From a virus: a stretch of 16,624 nt of DNA. The stretch lies in UHGV virus genome UHGV-0349119. One strand, given 5' to 3'. This document shows, in pieces, positions 1-6,747 of the stretch. The notes under the pieces were generated by a model. That model was not told where the DNA came from and did not search any database. It saw only the letters and a program-made list of their open reading frames with translations. How positions within the stretch are numbered: position 1 is the stretch's first letter; each line of letters starts with the position of its first letter. The position numbers and the translations under genes were made by a program.

Positions 1-117
1 CGTTACGCACCACCCCGTCAGTAGCTGAACAGGAGGGACAGCTGATAGAAACAGAAGCCACTGGAGCACCTCAAAAACACCATCATACACTAAATCAGTA
101 AGTTGGCAGCATCACCC
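1..117. other. p15A-replicon-like plasmid/vector backbone segment (reverse orientation)
   Basis: Reverse complement of nt 1-117 reads GGGTGATGCTGCCAACTTACTGATTTAGTGTATGATGGTGTTTTTGAGGTGCTCCAGTGGCTTCTGTTTCTATCAGCTGTCCCTCCTGTTCAGCTACTGACGGGGTGGTGCGTAACG. I recognise this from memory as the sequence just upstream of the p15A origin in pACYC184-family plasmids. Similarity stops at 117/118. Confidence 0.55.
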
Positions 118-227
118 TATGCATCGAAGAGTATTATTCTGCTACCGGAATTTATAATTATGATGATGCTGATGAGCAAACTGAGTTACTTAAAAATGCA
201 TTAAGGGACTATAAAATGGCTCACTAG
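118..227 (+). pseudogene. 3' remnant of an ORF truncated at the 117/118 junction (ends ...YDDADEQTELLKNALRDYKMAH*)
   Basis: Frame is open from the junction to TAG at 225-227 with no start codon in the retained part; AT-rich like the island cargo. The same frame hits a stop inside the vector-like segment, so it is not a fusion. Confidence 0.25.
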
Positions 228-302
228 TGAAAAGAGGCTAACTTGTATTAGCTCAAACTTGATCTTACACTTTTACTGCATAGGGCTTAACCTAAGCTGA
301 CA

Positions 303-326
303 GTCCGCTCTGTGCCAGAAGCGGAC
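303..326. promoter_or_regulatory. perfect inverted repeat GTCCGCT-N10-AGCGGAC upstream of ORF 549-1601
   Basis: 7-bp arms at 303-309 and 320-326 are exact reverse complements; overlaps the repeated 20-nt motif at 310-329. Confidence 0.5.
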
Positions 327-329
327 GTT
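310..329 (+). repeat. 20-nt motif CTGTGCCAGAAGCGGACGTT (copy 1 of 2)
   Basis: 18/20 identical to 3122-3141 (CTGTGTCAGAAGCGGACATT). Its last 10 nt are the reverse complement of AACGTCCGCT at 4311-4320. Confidence 0.6.
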
Positions 330-400
330 AGCCATAGTGAATAATGCACAATGCAGTGACTGGATACAGATATGGGAAACTATTACTTTTAAAGTCCGAC

Positions 401-431
401 ATTCTTGATTCTTGATTCTTGATTCTTGATT
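401..431. repeat. tandem heptamer repeat (ATTCTTG) x 4.4
   Basis: Four exact ATTCTTG units at 401-428 followed by partial ATT; about 120 nt upstream of the ORF at 549. Confidence 0.9.
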
Positions 432-440
432 ACTTAATCT
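412..440 (+). promoter_or_regulatory. weak candidate sigma70 promoter (TTGATT, 17-nt spacer, TAATCT) embedded in the heptamer array
   Basis: -35-like TTGATT at 412-417 is one of the repeat units; -10-like TAATCT at 435-440. Both hexamers are weak matches; by-eye only. Confidence 0.2.
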
Positions 441-548
441 AAGTAACCGTGCATTTTTATCCAGCTTCAACTATCCAATGAACCAGTATGTTCTGTAACA
501 TAAAAGCAGGCTATTTAGCCCACAATCAATTGATAATTAGGCACTTAT

Positions 549-1601
549 ATGAAACTAAAAAAAATGCTTGAAATGGATTTCATCAAGGAGTTTCAAGAGC
601 ACCTAGAAACTGACTTTGAGCATGAACTCTTACATGCCAGTCTTCGCAACTATTGTTCTCATGGTAATCCTCTGCGCTTCAACAACTTTGCATTTGCAAT
701 ACGTGAGCTAATAAATCATGTGCTGAAACGACTGGCACCAAATGACAGAGTTATGGCGTCTCCATGGTTCACTAAAAACAAAAATAACGCCACTGTTACC
801 CGTAAACAGCAAGCAAAATACATCGCCCAGAAGCATATACCCGATCAACTTCTTGATGATGTAGCTATCGAAAGACTAGATGATGGTATAGCATGGTTCA
901 ATAAAAACTATTCTTCTTTAAACGATTACACCCATATTAGCGAACATTCATTTGATAGTAACCCCAAACAGTTTTTTGAGAGTGCTAAACTAATAATAGA
1001 ACTGTGTAACATAATATTCGATACCTTCGATGAACTTGAGCGTGTTATTACCGAATCAATAATCGAGGAAGTACAGAATGAAGTTACTGACATCACAATG
1101 AATAATATCCCTGACGAACTGGATATATTATCTTCACAAACAACTGTTGATTGGTGCAATGTTGAATCCATTGAGTTGCTGAACCTTGACGAAAATTATA
1201 TTTATCTTTTGGTGCGCGGAATAGTTGAAATTACTAGGCAATACGGGCGTGGTGAGGATTACTTTGCACAGCAAGATTCTTATCCCTTCAAGTTTGCAGT
1301 CTCTATTCGCACTGATAATTTCAATTTAATAGCACCATTACTTAACACTGTAGTAGTGGATACAGGCTCATGGTATGACGATGGCGAAGGATCTGCTCAT
1401 TATGACACAATTTATACAACCTCCAGATTTTTGGAGATGATCTCACATATAAAAATTAAACCAAAAACAAAGAGAAGATTGTTTCCTGAGCTTAGTACAG
1501 TAGTAACACTAGGGATTCATGAAAGTGAAGGTATATCAGAATCGGTCGTCCCAGAAATATGTCATCTAAATCAAGGAAGCTTCAATTTAACTGAATTTTA
1601 G
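549..1601 (+). CDS. hypothetical acidic protein, 350 aa (candidate system gene A); no recognised domain
   Basis: Long ORF in AT-rich DNA, followed 16 nt later by the next ORF (operon-like). No Walker A motif. No clear Shine-Dalgarno at 549; in-frame ATGs at codons 5 and 9 are alternative starts. Confidence 0.6.
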   Translation: MKLKKMLEMDFIKEFQEHLETDFEHELLHASLRNYCSHGNPLRFNNFAFAIRELINHVLKRLAPNDRVMASPWFTKNKNNATVTRKQQAKYIAQKHIPDQLLDDVAIERLDDGIAWFNKNYSSLNDYTHISEHSFDSNPKQFFESAKLIIELCNIIFDTFDELERVITESIIEEVQNEVTDITMNNIPDELDILSSQTTVDWCNVESIELLNLDENYIYLLVRGIVEITRQYGRGEDYFAQQDSYPFKFAVSIRTDNFNLIAPLLNTVVVDTGSWYDDGEGSAHYDTIYTTSRFLEMISHIKIKPKTKRRLFPELSTVVTLGIHESEGISESVVPEICHLNQGSFNLTEF

Positions 1602-1617
1602 GATTATCTATGGAGAG

Positions 1618-3018
1618 ATGAAAATGTCTAATAAGATCTATAGCCTACAAAGAATGCCTACTGAAGCATTTAAGATATTTGCAATGTCATTGCCACATGG
1701 GCCTAATTATGGTAATGCGGAATTACTTTCCGCTTGGTCAAATGAAAAAGGGCTTGGATATGGTGCAGTCCTTCAATACAGCAAAAATTCATATGGCCTT
1801 GTTGTGCTCAGGCGACGGGAAGATTATGTGCTGGTACCTCTCGAGCATGAGATGTGTTTTACCGAGCAGGAGGCATTGGTGCATCTTGATAAGCACCTTT
1901 CAGCCGGAGGAGATTTATTACCGATTCCATCTGGGCAATCACGTAGAGCCCGACTGGATCATGTTGGTGAGCGGAATGTTTGTCAGGCATTTATACAATT
2001 ATCGTCCACGATAAAGTACCGAGGAGCATTTCATTTAATTGTCGAGCTCTATCTGGCATTACCAAAACCTGATGATAACTTCAGAACCGATCTCCAGACC
2101 CAAGGATTCAACTCTAGAATCTGGGAGCTATACCTTTTCGCATGTTTTAAAGAGCAGGGAATTAAAGTTTTTCAAGATTATCCATCTCCGGATTTTATGC
2201 TCATGAACGGTAATAACAAAGCATATGTTGAGGCGGTCACCGCGAATCCAACTGGTCCGGGCAGCCTAAAGTTGCCTCAAACACAATTCCCCCCCGGAGA
2301 TCGATTAGCTCGCACAGCAGGTGATATGGCAGCACGGTTCGCTAAGACCATCAGATCTAAACTCCAGAGAAAGTATGAAGAACTACCGCATGTTAAAGGA
2401 TTTCCATTTGCAATCGCTATAGCGGATTTTAGCGGTGGGGGCACTATGGTCTGGTCTCGCGAGTCACTTCCAACCTATTTGTATGGGCAAACCGCACATA
2501 CAGTCAAAACATCCAAAGGTATGAAGGCTGCTGCATTATCAATTGAAAAGCTTTTAGGCCATGTAAATATTCCGGCAGGACTATTTAACCACCCAGAGAT
2601 TGAAAATTTATCTGCTATCTTGTTTAGTAATGCTGGAACATTGCCAAAATTCCAGCGAATGGCAATCCAAGCTGAATTTTCCTCACCTATTGTGAAAGCC
2701 CGCAGGGTTGGGATTTTATTTGATAGGACTGAAGGGGCCTTGGAACCAATTGACTTCGATCTAGATATTCAATCGCCTGAATATATTAATCTTTGCGATG
2801 GCAAAGAATTTTGGTGTTTTGAACTTGAAGTATTTCATAACCCTAATGCTGCTTATCCAATGTCCCATGATTTCCTGCCGGGGGCAACACATTGGTTTGA
2901 ACACAATGGAGAGATCATCTGTGAGACCCAATGGAAAAACCAGGTACTTGCATCAGTAACCGAGTTTAGTATTGTTCCAGATGTCGCCGATAAACTCAAA
3001 GCCAAGGAAAAGCCGTGA
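1618..3018 (+). CDS. hypothetical protein, 466 aa (candidate system gene B); possible degenerate PD-(D/E)xK-like core
   Basis: GGAGAG at 1612-1617 is well spaced for the ATG at 1624 (the 1618 ATG is in frame). Residues E170, PD191-192 and E205 (WELYLFA...SPDFMLMNGNNKAYVEAVT) loosely resemble a nuclease core but lack the canonical Lys. No NTPase motif. Confidence 0.65.
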   Translation: MKMSNKIYSLQRMPTEAFKIFAMSLPHGPNYGNAELLSAWSNEKGLGYGAVLQYSKNSYGLVVLRRREDYVLVPLEHEMCFTEQEALVHLDKHLSAGGDLLPIPSGQSRRARLDHVGERNVCQAFIQLSSTIKYRGAFHLIVELYLALPKPDDNFRTDLQTQGFNSRIWELYLFACFKEQGIKVFQDYPSPDFMLMNGNNKAYVEAVTANPTGPGSLKLPQTQFPPGDRLARTAGDMAARFAKTIRSKLQRKYEELPHVKGFPFAIAIADFSGGGTMVWSRESLPTYLYGQTAHTVKTSKGMKAAALSIEKLLGHVNIPAGLFNHPEIENLSAILFSNAGTLPKFQRMAIQAEFSSPIVKARRVGILFDRTEGALEPIDFDLDIQSPEYINLCDGKEFWCFELEVFHNPNAAYPMSHDFLPGATHWFEHNGEIICETQWKNQVLASVTEFSIVPDVADKLKAKEKP

Positions 3019-3102
3019 TTGCTTGATGCAAGCATATTCTTGAAAGAAGAAAATTGACAAGATTTAAAACTAATAATGAAGGGGGGAATGTTACGAGGTT
3101 GT

Positions 3103-3124
3103 CAGGGCTGCAACAGCAGCCCTG
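3103..3124 (+). promoter_or_regulatory. stable hairpin (9-bp stem CAGGGCTGC/GCAGCCCTG, loop AACA) 85 nt after the ORF-B stop
   Basis: Exact reverse-complement arms seen directly. No immediate T-tract, so not a classic intrinsic terminator; could be an attenuator, RNA-stability element or protein-binding site. Confidence 0.35.
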
Positions 3125-3141
3125 TGTCAGAAGCGGACATT
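3122..3141 (+). repeat. 20-nt motif CTGTGTCAGAAGCGGACATT (copy 2 of 2), about 55 nt upstream of ORF 3195
   Basis: 18/20 identity to 310-329. Confidence 0.6.
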
Positions 3142-3194
3142 TTAAGCATTCGAGTGTAAGGTCTGTTTTTTAATTTGTAATTTTAGGAGGTAAC

Positions 3195-4148
3195 ATGCCA
3201 AAGAAAAGACGGTCTATTAGCCAGGTAAAAGAAGACATTTCAATCAGGGTTCTGCGGGAAAAACTACCTCGCGAATGGGTCGTACATAGCTATGGCGCTG
3301 ACTATGGTATTGATTGCGTTGTTGAATTATTTGATTTTATTGATGACAGTGAAAGTATTGCAGAAACCCTTGGTGAAAACTTCTTTGTACAACTAAAATC
3401 TTCAGATTGTATTGAATATTGTACACGTAAAGCCTATGCTCGTGGAAATGTAACCAAAGGAAAGTTAACAGAAGATAAAAGCGATTTTGTCGAAATCCCT
3501 GTCGCAAAATTCAAGTTAGATATATCAGACATTTTGACTGTTCAGTCTATAGGTATTGCAATTCCAGTATTATTGATACTAGTTGACACTAATACAGAAA
3601 AGGCATTTTTTATTTGCCTTAATGATTACATAGATAAAGTTCTCATACCAGAAGACCCGAATTATTCTAAAAAAGACTCAAAGACTATATATATACCTCT
3701 TGAAAATGAAATTCTGGATGATGAAGATGCGCTTGTTCCATTACGTGCATATGGTAAAAGATCAAAAATGTATGGCGCATTCTCACTTTTTAACTATCAA
3801 TTAAAAGAAATAAACCGATTACAAGGTAAAGCGGCCGTACAATTTCCTGTCTCTTTCGATGAAGCTATAGAGATGGTAAATAACTTTATTGTAATTGCTC
3901 TTAGACAAGATATATGGTCTGGTCATGAATTTTGGAAGCCGATGGTATCGAGCCAAAAGGAGTTGATCCAACTTCAAATAGATATTGATAAAGAGGTAAA
4001 ACCTGAACATTATGAACATTTTTTGAGTTACTGTTCCGAAGTGGTTTGGCATAAGTTAACAAATCTTTCAAATATGTATGAGGAGCTTGTTAGAGAATGG
4101 TTCATGCCAACCTTGCTAGCGACATTAACATCAGCCCGCCCTAAATAA
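3195..4148 (+). CDS. hypothetical protein, 317 aa, with N-terminal Mrr/DUF4365-like PD-(D/E)xK nuclease-fold motif (candidate system gene C)
   Basis: Strong RBS AGGAGG 4 nt before the ATG. N-terminal GADYGIDCVVEL...FFVQLK (D36/D40, E44, Q66-x-K68) matches the D...E...QxK pattern I recall for DUF4365 and Mrr-like restriction folds. Domain call is from memory. Confidence 0.7.
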   Translation: MPKKRRSISQVKEDISIRVLREKLPREWVVHSYGADYGIDCVVELFDFIDDSESIAETLGENFFVQLKSSDCIEYCTRKAYARGNVTKGKLTEDKSDFVEIPVAKFKLDISDILTVQSIGIAIPVLLILVDTNTEKAFFICLNDYIDKVLIPEDPNYSKKDSKTIYIPLENEILDDEDALVPLRAYGKRSKMYGAFSLFNYQLKEINRLQGKAAVQFPVSFDEAIEMVNNFIVIALRQDIWSGHEFWKPMVSSQKELIQLQIDIDKEVKPEHYEHFLSYCSEVVWHKLTNLSNMYEELVREWFMPTLLATLTSARPK

Positions 4149-4196
4149 TAATAGCAATGCTACGCAAAAGCATCCTAGCCCTAAATTCTTAAATAA

Positions 4197-4223
4197 GGGC
4201 TTCATATCAAATTGAAGCCTTTG
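4197..4223. terminator. candidate stem-loop between convergent genes (GGCTTCA, 8-nt loop, TGAAGCC, then TTTG)
   Basis: 7-bp exact inverted repeat at 4198-4204 and 4213-4219 with a short T-run; lies about 50 nt past the ORF-C stop. May serve both convergent transcripts. Confidence 0.3.
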
Positions 4224-4408
4224 TGAACAATAGAAACAACACTAAAAGACACCCCTATCACATTTAGTTGAATAGAAAAATAATAATGCGCCCACGACGA
4301 TACAATTACTAACGTCCGCTCCTCGCTCAAAGCAGACTGTCAGATTTGATTGCATTTTGCCTACGCAAACTGTCAGTTCGAGCCTGAGCTAATACAGCTA
4401 ACTGGATG

Positions 4409-4636
4409 TTAGCCTTTTTTAATTTTATTTTTAGATTGTTCAATGTGATGATTTAACACTTCTCTCTTTGCCTCTTCATAGGTTAGCTCTCCATTGATTA
4501 CCTTATTTTTTATTTCATTAAAAAATGAGGAGCCTTTGGGATCTTTACTTGATAAAAAAAGACTGGCTTCAGCTCTCCGAAAAGCTTCTTTCCTTGCTTC
4601 TATAGAAAATGAATTAGCAGGGTTATTTTTGTTCAT
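4409..4636 (-). CDS. small helical protein, 75 aa; loosely VbhA/YhfG-antitoxin-like but lacking the inhibitory Glu motif
   Basis: Overlaps the stop of the upstream membrane-protein gene by 14 nt (coupled). Segment RRAEASLFLSSKDP...VINGELTYEE resembles the pattern I recall for VbhA/YhfG small proteins; weak. Confidence 0.4.
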   Translation of the reverse strand: MNKNNPANSFSIEARKEAFRRAEASLFLSSKDPKGSSFFNEIKNKVINGELTYEEAKREVLNHHIEQSKNKIKKG

Positions 4637-5513
4637 AAGTTGAAGTGCCCTTATTATTTATATTCGGGATGTTTTTATCTACAAGAGTTAGTCTTAACTC
4701 CGAGAATTTATTTCCTGATATTTTATAACACTGATTTTCATTTTTTTCAATATAAAGAGATTTGCTTTCTGCGCTACCACATGTCGTAGATGTTCTTGCA
4801 TCAAGAAAAATAAACTTTTCTTGAAATCTTTCAATATATTTCATTGCTGTCATGCTAATAATAAAAAGAGCAACTGACACAGCAAAAAGGGATAAGCCTG
4901 ATACTAAACGATTAAAATTAAATTTCCTTTTAATAACTAATGAACTGGCTAGATTGACCATGTTATAGGGGACCATAATTATGAGTCCTATTAATATTAT
5001 TTTTTCAGGAAGATTGTTCACTTGTATATGATGTTGAGCCAAGTTTCCAATATATACTGAAATCATAGAGGATATTACTATTTTTGCTGGGGATACATCT
5101 CGCAAAAATATGTATATATAGACTGTAGTTGCACAAATCATTGCTCCTATTGGAAATGAGAGCATGAAAGCATAAGCTAATGTTGAGTAATTAAGATTTT
5201 CTGGGGCTATACCATAAGCTATGTCAAGCTTAAACTTTGCGATCCATAAGCATACTGAATATGTAAAGCCAGTTACGCCCCACTTAACCACTGTATTATT
5301 AAATACTTTATTTAATAAATCACGATATCCTATGTATACACTGGTTAATAAAGCTATAGATGATAGAAAAATTGGAGCGGCAATGTATATATTTTCTAGC
5401 CATAATGGGTTTTCTACAATCAAGTATCCAAAAGGTATTAAGTATATTATAGCCAATAGTTGAGGGTTGTTTAATTTGGATGATGCGTCAACCAAATTAT
5501 TTTTATATTCCAT
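4623..5513 (-). CDS. polytopic inner-membrane protein, 296 aa, unknown function
   Basis: Several long hydrophobic segments consistent with 7-8 TM helices and a polar C-terminal tail. AAGGA RBS overlaps the integrase stop; ATG at 5511-5513 is 9 nt after it (operon-like). Very AT-rich. Confidence 0.65.
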   Translation of the reverse strand: MEYKNNLVDASSKLNNPQLLAIIYLIPFGYLIVENPLWLENIYIAAPIFLSSIALLTSVYIGYRDLLNKVFNNTVVKWGVTGFTYSVCLWIAKFKLDIAYGIAPENLNYSTLAYAFMLSFPIGAMICATTVYIYIFLRDVSPAKIVISSMISVYIGNLAQHHIQVNNLPEKIILIGLIIMVPYNMVNLASSLVIKRKFNFNRLVSGLSLFAVSVALFIISMTAMKYIERFQEKFIFLDARTSTTCGSAESKSLYIEKNENQCYKISGNKFSELRLTLVDKNIPNINNKGTSTYEQK

Positions 5514-5522
5514 ATAACGTCC

Positions 5523-6596
5523 TTATTTCAACTTTAACGCCAAATCTTCAGCTTTTGGATGATAATACCGCATTAGCATTCTTGGATCTTTATGTCCTGT
5601 AATTTTGGTCAGTTCATGCATAGGGAAAATTTCAGCAAGTCGAGAAGTTGCTTCATGTCGAAGGTCATGAAATCTTAAATCTTTAAGGAATGATTCATCA
5701 CATAATGAGTTTGTTTTCTCGTATCGTTCTCTGGCTCGTTTTACAGCTCGGTCAAAAGCTCGGGTAATCGCGTCTGCACGCATATCAAAAACCTTATCAG
5801 CAGCTGGCTTAGAATGTTCCTTGAGACTGGACAGTATCGTGATGGCTTTCGTTGATAAAGGGACATCGCGGGCATTACCATTCTTAGTATCCGGCAGATG
5901 TGCAACTCGCCGATCAAGATCGATAAAGCGCCATCGAAGATCTGCGATTTCGCTACGGCGCATGGCTGTCTCTAACGCCAGAAGAATGATTGCTGGCAAT
6001 ACTAATGAATGTGTTGCGGCGATGATATGTTCGATCTCGTTGGCTATTTCCTTTCCTGACGTAACACCGGTTTTCTCAGAAACTACAGGCAGCGCTTCCA
6101 GGCGTCTGGTCCTGGAGTTCTTGGGTTGAGGTTTGCGAATGGCCTCTACGGGGTTCAGCAGGCTCTCCATGCCCCATTCTTTCCGCGAAACGTTGAATAC
6201 ATGAGAAAGTAAGGCCAAACGCCTTAAAACGGTTGCAGGGGCATAGATTTTCAACCATTCATCTCTCAGCTTGGCGACATCGGCACTCCTGATGCTGGCC
6301 ATATAGTTTTTCGCCAGCTGAGTGCCTTTTAGTATCCGCACCAATGATTGGTCTTGCACTGCCCCTTTTTTGTCGGGAACAATCTCTTTTTCATATCGCG
6401 TTAGGGCTTCATACAATGTCGTAGATTCCGCTTCGCTGCGGCTAAGCCAAACTCCTCTCGCCATTTCTGACTCGATCATTTTGGCCCAAGCTTCTGCTTC
6501 TACTTTGGTGTTAAAGGTTTTGGTTTGAGAGGGAAAACCTCGTTTACGGATTTGAGCTTCCCATTGGTAGTTACCACGTTTGCGTATAGTCGCCAT
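5523..6596 (-). CDS. tyrosine recombinase / phage-type integrase of the AT-rich island
   Basis: C-terminal HDLRHEATSRLAE...LMRYYH matches the catalytic R-H-R-Y box region. Preferred start is the ATG at 6594-6596 (MATIRKRGNYQWEAQ...) with an AGGAA RBS; the ORF track's start at 6626 is a TTG. Confidence 0.85.
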   Translation of the reverse strand: MATIRKRGNYQWEAQIRKRGFPSQTKTFNTKVEAEAWAKMIESEMARGVWLSRSEAESTTLYEALTRYEKEIVPDKKGAVQDQSLVRILKGTQLAKNYMASIRSADVAKLRDEWLKIYAPATVLRRLALLSHVFNVSRKEWGMESLLNPVEAIRKPQPKNSRTRRLEALPVVSEKTGVTSGKEIANEIEHIIAATHSLVLPAIILLALETAMRRSEIADLRWRFIDLDRRVAHLPDTKNGNARDVPLSTKAITILSSLKEHSKPAADKVFDMRADAITRAFDRAVKRARERYEKTNSLCDESFLKDLRFHDLRHEATSRLAEIFPMHELTKITGHKDPRMLMRYYHPKAEDLALKLK

Positions 6597-6684
6597 TTCT
6601 GTCTGATTCCTAACGAACTGTGGCAATATTGTGGCAAAAAATCCATTTAAATTCGATAGGTATTGATTTTACAAGATCAATTTA

Positions 6685-6733
6685 CGCATTCGTAATGCGA
6701 AGGTCGTAGGTTCGACTCCTATTATCGGCACCA
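6685..6733 (+). tRNA. thrW: 3' fragment (anticodon stem to CCA, about 49 nt) of tRNA-Thr(CGU); att core repeat, not an intact gene
   Basis: CGCATTCGTAATGCGAAGGTCGTAGGTTCGACTCCTATTATCGGCACCA carries the anticodon loop with CGT, the T-arm GGTTCGACTCC and the acceptor 3' end plus CCA. The preceding sequence (aagatcaattta) is not a tRNA 5' half. thrW is the att site of P22/SfV-type phages. Confidence 0.75.
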
Positions 6734-6747
6734 TTTAAATCAATAAG

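Follow-up and report, generated by a model that had tools for sequence, protein, structure and literature searches.

The closest described counterpart of the element analyzed here is the Z/fun region of phage P2. Two P2 'Z-region' records of 2004 (AJ512681 and AJ512677) annotate the corresponding stretches as 'left inverted repeat' and 'right inverted repeat', and the repeats are said to enable site-specific recombination (Nilsson, Karlsson and Haggard-Ljungquist, 2004, as far as this work is represented in PMC8987985). According to a 2026 analysis of the P2 and P4 hotspots, the mechanism of exchange is still unknown. We observe a similar arrangement in a 16,624-nt stretch of viral DNA (UHGV virus genome UHGV-0349119; below, the window), which matches Escherichia coli TUM10008, its source genome, at 100%. 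An earlier note had described there a 20-nt motif upstream of two units of cargo genes, with a shorter inverted copy downstream, and had interpreted it as an operator coordinating these units. The motif is instead the conserved edge of palindromic sites that bound swapped defense cassettes. This boundary role can be assigned with high confidence; recombination sites at cassette boundaries take the place of the operator, and a function of the motif as a gene switch is improbable. Both the inverted repeats of the P2 Z locus and the proposal that they recombine site-specifically go back to 2004, and the element in the window adds a new host element to them.

Both ends of the window element are homologous to the P2 Z/fun repeats; placed side by side, they share the termini, the CTGACAG repeats, and a GTCYGCT-N10-AGCRGAC core. 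The P2 repeats enclose variable, non-essential cargo with lysogenic-conversion or anti-phage functions, and the same is true of the window and its variants. A blastn search of a phage collection with the P2-type end yielded 97 matching records, the annotated Z-region entries among them. In complete E. coli genomes, sequences similar to the left end occur at 3004 places in 2014 of 5426 genomes, all of them unannotated, and the matches end at window positions 326–331. Among them are a P2-like prophage hotspot between tail-fiber assembly and sheath genes (L006; labels L001–L096 denote comparison loci fetched from other genomes or contigs) and CP4-like islands (L007). The difference is in location and content. 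The P2 element lies between tail genes G and FI, as seen in L006, whereas the window element lies between a small open reading frame (ORF) after trbL and vbhA, within the terminator of a conjugative element whose transfer genes are of the P type, and consists of two cassettes with a relic internal site.

Two copies of the motif, CTGTGCCAGAAGCGGACGTT at 310–329 and CTGTGTCAGAAGCGGACATT at 3122–3141, are identical at 18 of 20 positions, and their coordinates had been given exactly. Only 0.01 match to the 20-base motif is expected by chance in the window, and two matches were reached in none of 200 shuffles. The third, inverted copy is also real: AGCGGACRTT occurs at 320–329 and 3132–3141 on the plus strand and at 4311–4320 on the minus strand, three occurrences against 0.04 expected, again a number reached in none of 200 shuffles. 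The perfect 7-bp inverted repeat at 303–326 (GTCCGCT at 303–309 and AGCGGAC at 320–326, separated by a 10-nt spacer) and the 9-bp hairpin at 3103–3124 are present as described. It had been overlooked that the third copy also belongs to a 7-10-7 palindrome (4314–4337) and that copies 1 and 3 are each embedded in a long inverted repeat (289–338 and 4302–4351, 78% complementary); a second pair of inverted repeats is formed by 244–273 and 4367–4396 (80% complementary). An unbiased repeat search united 303–326, 3115–3138, and 4314–4337 in a single 24-nt family.

The consensus of the site is GTCYGCT-N10-AGCGGAC-RTT, a 24-bp palindrome (24–27 bp with the extension), and the motif noticed earlier is its center plus the cargo-facing arm. 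The fetched loci contain 125 palindromic 7-10-7 sites with G.C.GC. arms, compared with 23–43 in shuffled sequences. We collected 70 distinct enterobacterial sites, chosen by the loop and the cargo-facing arm only. In this set, the distal arm is complementary in 52–66 sites at each of six positions, and the seventh position is C or T opposite G. Two classes of sites can be distinguished: the L class (TGTGCCAG; 39 sites) with the loop YYGTGCCARR, and the R class (TGAGCGAG; 31 sites) with the loop NTGAGCGARR when read in the same orientation. The classes differ at loop position 4, which is T in 37 L sites and A in 29 R sites, and at loop position 7, which is C in 34 L sites and G in 30 R sites. 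The bases G3, G5, C6, and A8 are near-invariant and common to both loops. The RTT extension follows the cargo-facing arm in 40 of the 70 sites. The arms vary by clade, both arms together: GTCCGCT/AGCGGAC, GGCCGCT/AGCGGCC, and GACTGCT/AGCAGTC.

The sites are arranged around cargo in a regular way. In 23 of 26 site-bounded intervals, the cargo lies between one L site and one inverted R site, with the AGCGGAC-RTT arms facing inward. Neighboring cassettes are joined by an R site, a 15–18-nt linker, and an L site, and the gene of a small tyrosine recombinase, if present, stands at the linker position. The cargo is typically anti-phage: site-bounded intervals contain Shedu, SIR2-HerA (three loci), DUF4365, peptidase U49 (Lit-like), HD phosphohydrolase, and UvrD-like helicase genes. 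Cargo genes are found on either strand relative to the site, and thus the motif is often located at the 3' end of a gene.

Comparison of loci that share only a part of their sequence demonstrates what the sites delimit. Three variants of the conjugative element carry different cargo at the same place and between the same ~86-bp ends: the cassettes of the window, Shedu on the opposite strand (L002), and a 1386-nt ORF (L093). The variants diverge right after AGCGGAC(RTT) on the left and rejoin at (G)TCCGCT on the right. Copies 1 and 3 thus form the inner edge of either end, where the cargo starts and stops.

Both cassettes of the window are reused elsewhere. Cassette 1 is present, with 98.3% identity over window positions 298–3101, in an unrelated prophage contig (L096) with a different flank, where the similarity begins from the L-type site on; beyond the counterpart of window position 3101, another 40 nt of L096 lead to an R site, which an 18-nt linker separates from the next L site. 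Cassette 2 (97.4% identity) is present in a different island (L004), bounded by R and by X, the composite of the 9-bp hairpin and the motif, and the two loci diverge after the R-type palindrome. In L004, the hairpin and the motif stand directly 3' of the stop codon of a frameshifted small tyrosine recombinase gene. In the three-way alignment, the window switches from L096-like to L004-like sequence at 3096–3101 with a microhomology of 2–3 nt, the BLAST end points being 3101 and 3096. Thus, the ancestral order was cassette 1, R, recombinase, X, and cassette 2, from which a deletion removed the R site and the recombinase gene. The earlier note had observed that the sequence of the motif is conserved and its structure is not. 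The conservation is confirmed, since loop and arm bases are near-invariant in the 70 distinct sites, and the contrast in structure arises because copy 2 is a relic of the site behind the recombinase gene, left after that gene was deleted.

A natural footprint of insertion or excision is provided by two E. coli strains. In Nissle 1917, a 4.27-kb array with cargo, the recombinase gene, an ETEC_3214-family gene, and another ORF lies between two direct L sites (L010, 5456–5479 and 9724–9747). In SE15, the same flanks on both sides surround a single L site with no cassette array. The flank alignments overlap by 15 nt, GTCCGCTTTGTGCCA, and the SE15 site carries the loop end and the inner arm of the right-hand site of Nissle. 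The difference between the strains is the trace that would be expected of conservative site-specific integration of a circle at L, or of its excision. The block of L, cargo, recombinase, and X is also found in strain 488, with 99.6% identity and with different flanks on both sides. Across E. coli, partial matches to the Nissle array end at its positions 157, 198, 1661–1669, 2367–2370, and 4439–4449, which are the positions of sites.

The recombinase gene associated with the arrays encodes, when intact, a protein of 200 aa that consists of the catalytic domain only (PF00589 over residues 35–184). Its scores with the Xer, integron, and invertase models stay far under the respective cut-offs, for instance 52 bits against the 220-bit cut-off of the Xer/integron model. 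The gene is present in 924 of the 5426 E. coli genomes, both on chromosomes and on plasmids. A search in E. coli gave 930 matches; among the matches listed, most end at query positions 663–670, and the site ends at 666. Relatives with more than 60% identity are encoded in at least 547 species genomes, from Gamma- and Betaproteobacteria and a few other phyla, and are represented in at least 7998 protein clusters. An X-type site is located directly 3' of the recombinase stop codon in L004, L010–L012, and the enterobacterial loci L013–L021. In 80 fetched loci, we observed a recurrent GC-rich hairpin of variable sequence 3' of the gene, followed by a conserved motif, GCCA-RR-AGCGGNC. In Pseudomonas, the gene is flanked by inverted site copies of 15–25 bp (L059, L044, and L057, around 8001–8650), which in L059 match at 24 of 25 bases, TGTCCGCTTCTGGCCGGTTAGCGAC. 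Since these inverted sites are near-perfect, the gene and its sites look like a tiny unit resembling an insertion sequence.

Another feature of the gene is a hairpin at its start, which typically pairs the Shine-Dalgarno sequence and the start codon (L010, 6985–7023; upstream of the gene in L013–L092). In E. coli the stem is 15 bp long, and in Nissle the fold has −14 kcal/mol with a z-score of −8. Clades differ in the sequence of the stem and yet share its structure; this suggests that translation of the recombinase is tightly controlled.

Based on the constant association of gene and sites, the clade-specific variants of the sites, the footprint, and the dyad geometry (arms of ~8–9 bp around an asymmetric center of 6–8 bp), the 200-aa protein is a reasonably good candidate for the enzyme that acts on the sites. 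A circular cassette would be integrated or excised when two L sites, or two R sites, recombine, and paired L-by-L and R-by-R exchange would replace one. Arrays could grow by integration at L or R. Speculatively, the two variants of the center might keep L from recombining with R, as in heterospecific lox sites. Arrays devoid of the recombinase gene, such as that of the window, may be served in trans or be decaying. In the window, L and R are the inner ends of the inserted element, and the middle copy is the 3' site of the recombinase, left after the deletion. Catalysis by this particular protein, the position of strand exchange, and the incompatibility of L and R are parts of the scheme that we infer.

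Several observations weigh against this scheme. The window element has no recombinase gene, and sites are found in 2014 of the E. coli genomes, the gene in 924. The internal junction of the window at 3096–3101 arose by illegitimate deletion, not at a site, and the outer termini TGTATTAGCTCA and a 7-bp repeat, not the L and R sites, served for insertion into the conjugative element. A gap of 10 nt between 7-bp arms is unusual for tyrosine recombinases and has to be re-read as arms of ~8–9 bp around a crossover region of 6–8 bp. A search of PDB sequences with the recombinase gave no match. Taking these points into account, we still find it fairly probable that the motif is part of a palindromic site-specific recombination site of cassettes. 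More tentatively, and with somewhat more doubt than confidence, one can propose a widespread proteobacterial cassette-exchange system, formed by a catalytic-only recombinase of 200 aa and two heterospecific 24-bp sites, that moves anti-phage systems among P2-like and lambdoid prophages, conjugative elements, islands, and plasmids; the window would then contain a decayed array that has lost its recombinase.

The outer parts of the element have a history of their own (Table 1). Relative to other strains, the insert comprises positions 244–4396 and splits the terminator of the conjugative element, which had been overlooked earlier. In many strains, only the bidirectional terminator GAGGCTAAC-TGGAT-GTTAGCCTTTTTT is present between the small ORF after trbL and vbhA, as in L003 and L094. 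The empty site in these two loci reads GAGGCTAAC and, across the insertion point, TGGATGTTAGCCTTTTTT, with GCTAACT present once; in the window, GCTAACT stands on either side of the insert. Together with this 7-bp repeat, the outer ~60 bp of the ends (244–302 and 4338–4396) mark an insertion of the element as a whole into the terminator palindrome. The outer termini look like a transposon end (TG...CA) or like the 12-7-12 core of a different recombinase, and because they are unlike the L and R sites, a second mechanism or enzyme may be involved.

Table 1. Features of the cassette element and its immediate flanks; positions are those of the window.
Feature	Position	Strand	Description
IS1A end	1–116	−	Truncates the small ORF downstream of trbL; IS1A transposase annotated in TUM10008; context only, outside the cassette element
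Left 7-bp direct repeat	237–243		GCTAACT; insertion point in the terminator palindrome of the conjugative element
Left terminal inverted repeat, ~86 bp	244–329		Terminus TGTATTAGCTCA (244–255), CTGACA (297–302), L site
L site	303–329		GTCCGCT-CTGTGCCAGA-AGCGGAC + GTT; copy 1 = loop, cargo-facing arm, and extension; agrees with the L-type consensus (39 distinct sites)
Cassette 1	330–3097	+	ORF-A (549–1601), ORF-B (1618–3018); four ATTCTTG copies (401–428); terminator-like hairpin (3020–3034)
Deletion junction	3096–3101		Switch of homology from the cassette-1 donor to the region 3' of the recombinase gene; microhomology of 2–3 nt
X site	3103–3141		Hairpin CAGGGCTGC-AACA-GCAGCCCTG, then L-type loop, AGCGGAC, and ATT; copy 2 = 3122–3141
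Cassette 2	3142–4310	+	ORF-C (3195–4148), DUF4365, predicted restriction-endonuclease-like (Pfam)
R site	4311–4337		AAC + GTCCGCT-CCTCGCTCAA-AGCAGAC; copy 3 = 4311–4320 (extension and cargo-facing arm); agrees with the R-type consensus (31 distinct sites)
Right terminal inverted repeat, ~86 bp	4311–4396		R site, two CTGTCAG (4337–4343 and 4370–4376), terminus TGAGCTAATACA (4385–4396)
Right 7-bp direct repeat	4397–4403		GCTAACT; then the remainder of the bidirectional terminator (4397–4420), with a terminator-like match at 4397–4413

One alternative explanation starts from these termini. The sites could be the inner ends of a non-autonomous transposon, similar to a miniature inverted-repeat transposable element or a mobile insertion cassette and mobilized by a transposase in trans, with the recombinase as a passenger or as a selfish insert that targets palindromes. 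The ~86-bp inverted repeats with TG...CA, the 7-bp direct repeat, and the empty site in other strains agree with such an element; the CTGACAG repeats inside the ends could be binding sites, and the recombinase gene stands at the R-linker-L position, as an insert might. This reading may account for the outer termini. However, no transposase with these ends was found; most sites, namely the cassette junctions in L010, L011, and L013–L027, are devoid of the outer 60 bp of the repeats; the difference between Nissle and SE15 and the swaps of cargo are located at the 24-bp sites and not at the outer termini; and the sequence of the site tracks the recombinase clade. As an explanation of the motif, a transposon is unlikely. 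In the P2 copies, we observed no clear, consistent target-site duplication.

A slightly weaker alternative is that the palindromes are terminators, insulators, mRNA stabilizers, or REP-like repeats, which merely provide short homologies for exchange by RecA-type or phage recombinases or for illegitimate exchange. In favor of this, the sites are located between genes, a terminator harbors the element, and the junction in the window demonstrates that illegitimate events occur. As single strands, the L copy of the window folds well (−11.9 kcal/mol, z-score −5.2) and the X hairpin is strong, but the R copy folds no better than shuffled sequences. A terminator scan found the matches at 3020–3034 and 4397–4413 and none of the three motif copies: L, X, and R fit no terminator pattern, having loops of 10 nt followed by GTTAGCC, ATTTTAA, or TGTCAG and not by a T-run. 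An Rfam scan of positions 1–4800 (E ≤ 1) gave two chance snoRNA-like matches and none at the motifs. The loop is as conserved as the stems and falls into two discrete classes, which fits recognition by a protein and not mere hairpin formation. With 24 bp, the sites just reach or fall short of the length that RecA usually needs for efficient recombination, and the pairing of the sites with a conserved recombinase gene across phyla would be left unexplained. We regard structural repeats as improbable. The earlier suggestion of protein-bound DNA, as opposed to an RNA fold, is compatible with the data as far as binding is concerned: where the distal arm has T at position 4, as it frequently does, the partner arm shows no compensating change, and the lack of a distinct fold in the R copy points in the same direction.

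Two structural candidates were considered and rejected. The first is a hairpin supported by covariation of the arms. The T that is common at position 4 of the distal arm stays uncompensated among enterobacteria, and the joint change of both arms between clades does not discriminate, because it is also expected for a site bound by a dimer. The second is an attC-like composite fold of R-linker-L: the long hairpin is preferred at one of six junctions, and two small hairpins at the rest.

The operator proper, bound by a transcription factor of the island or the host and co-regulating the cargo units, is very improbable: copy 1 lies 220 nt upstream of ORF-A and copy 2 lies 54 nt upstream of ORF-C, the site is a dyad like many operators, and its sequence rather than its fold is conserved, but the element contains no regulator gene or domain (Pfam, PADLOC), there are no promoter-like hexamers between the motifs and the ORF starts, the L site stands at the 3' end of the Shedu gene in L002, the SE15 site stands at the same locus without a cassette array, and the motif, which does recur in other islands and elements, brackets unrelated cargo (Shedu, SIR2-HerA, DUF4365, the Lit-like protease, and P2 Z-region genes) on either strand, in unrelated mobile elements and many genera, and always coincides with the breakpoints of homology. 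In the promoter scan, promoter-like matches were no commoner than in shuffled sequences, and none adjoined the motifs. The middle copy, taken as a 24-bp site with its extension, spans 3115–3141.

Among other systems of gene exchange, integrons are similar to the cassette arrays described here in three respects: (i) arrays of promoter-poor cassettes are located between recombination sites, with a tyrosine recombinase encoded in the array; (ii) insertion or excision is precisely at the sites, as in Nissle and SE15; and (iii) the cargo is rich in anti-phage systems. The differences are equally clear. IntI has ~320 aa and an IntI-specific insertion, whereas the recombinase here belongs to a catalytic-only family of 200 aa and is absent from the window element. 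The attC site is long, conserved in structure, and present once per cassette, whereas the sites here are short 7-10-7 palindromes, conserved in sequence, with two inverted sites per cassette. Finally, the cargo here is on either strand, and the recombinase gene is located between cassettes and not divergently at one end.

The pdif modules of Acinetobacter plasmids are also bounded by two short inverted sites in alternating orientation and recur in different replicons. However, the L and R sites are unlike dif in sequence and geometry (11-6-11) when read against the known dif, GGTGCGCATAA-TGTATA-TTATGTTAAAT. The arrays are accompanied by a dedicated small recombinase gene in place of the host XerC/D, and they carry defense rather than resistance genes.

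A further parallel is cassette exchange with heterospecific lox or FRT sites, where a pair of incompatible sites is designed to force exchange and prevent excision. Here too, two variants of a palindrome, different in two central bases, are inverted around a cassette. The lox and FRT pairs are a laboratory design, whereas here the system would be natural, and L/R incompatibility is suggested only by the discrete central sequences. The recombinase-associated acquired interbacterial defense clusters (rAID-1) of Bacteroidales (Ross et al., 2019, cited in PMC13552941) reportedly link a tyrosine recombinase to repeat-separated arrays of acquired protective genes. The likeness is in the recombinase and in the arrays of acquired protective genes between repeats. 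Bacteroidales belong to another phylum, and both the recombinase family and the repeats are different; the cargo gives immunity to toxins there and anti-phage defense here.

A full-text literature search, which included the literal site sequences and the accession of the Nissle recombinase, WP_001305361.1, retrieved no description of the recombinase, the two-class sites, or the cassette arrays; a prior description elsewhere is possible. Relative to the literature searched, the two-class 24-bp site, the cassette arrays, and the widespread candidate recombinase of 200 aa appear to be new. The movement of defense systems between unrelated mobile elements is an openly stated gap. The motif offers a testable answer: 24-bp sites stand at the cassette edges, a candidate enzyme and a natural footprint are at hand, and the same cassettes recur in prophages and islands as well as in a conjugative element. 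If this answer is correct, cassette boundaries could be predicted from sequence, the genes between L and R would provide a new route to unknown defense genes, and it would become clear why hotspots turn over so rapidly. With its very small size and two apparently orthogonal sites, the recombinase might also serve genome engineering.

In cassette 1 of the window, ORF-A encodes two pPIWI-associated nuclease domains, and ORF-B encodes a PD-T7-1-like defense protein (Pfam, PADLOC). The tandem heptamer ATTCTTG, ~120 nt upstream of ORF-A, is present in three copies in L096, four in the window and L001, and five in L005, in cassettes that otherwise hardly differ, and length differences of +7 and +14 nt among full-length matches fit variation in its copy number. 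Such variation may reflect slipped-strand phase variation of the promoter region of the defense operon.

From base 117 on, the source genome contains an integrative conjugative element (traJ, trbJ, trbL ... vbhA, a 296-aa ORF, and an integrase) that adjoins tRNA-Ser. Other strains align to the window only from this base on, and base 116 is, judged from the sequence and the known end of IS1, the IS1 terminus. In the source genome, two IS1A copies bracket trbL (L095, 2984–3681 and 5220–5917), one of them truncating the downstream small ORF, and the conjugative element in this strain is probably transfer-defective. The 296-aa ORF, which has no family match, overlaps the gene of a 75-aa VbhA-family antitoxin at 4409–5513, with the cargo hotspot on one side and the integrase on the other. 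This pair is kept in all variants and may be a toxin-antitoxin or Fic-like stabilization module. Integrase genes of 367 aa and 387 aa are located on either side of the annotated tRNA-Ser (~5523–7911), and both the conjugative element and a CPS-53-like prophage remnant (yfdR/S/T) adjoin the same tRNA locus. The adjoining prophage (~10805–16317) looks chimeric and decayed: according to the source annotation, a truncated antitermination gene is directly joined to a truncated 'DNA circularization' gene and is followed by Mu-like baseplate genes.

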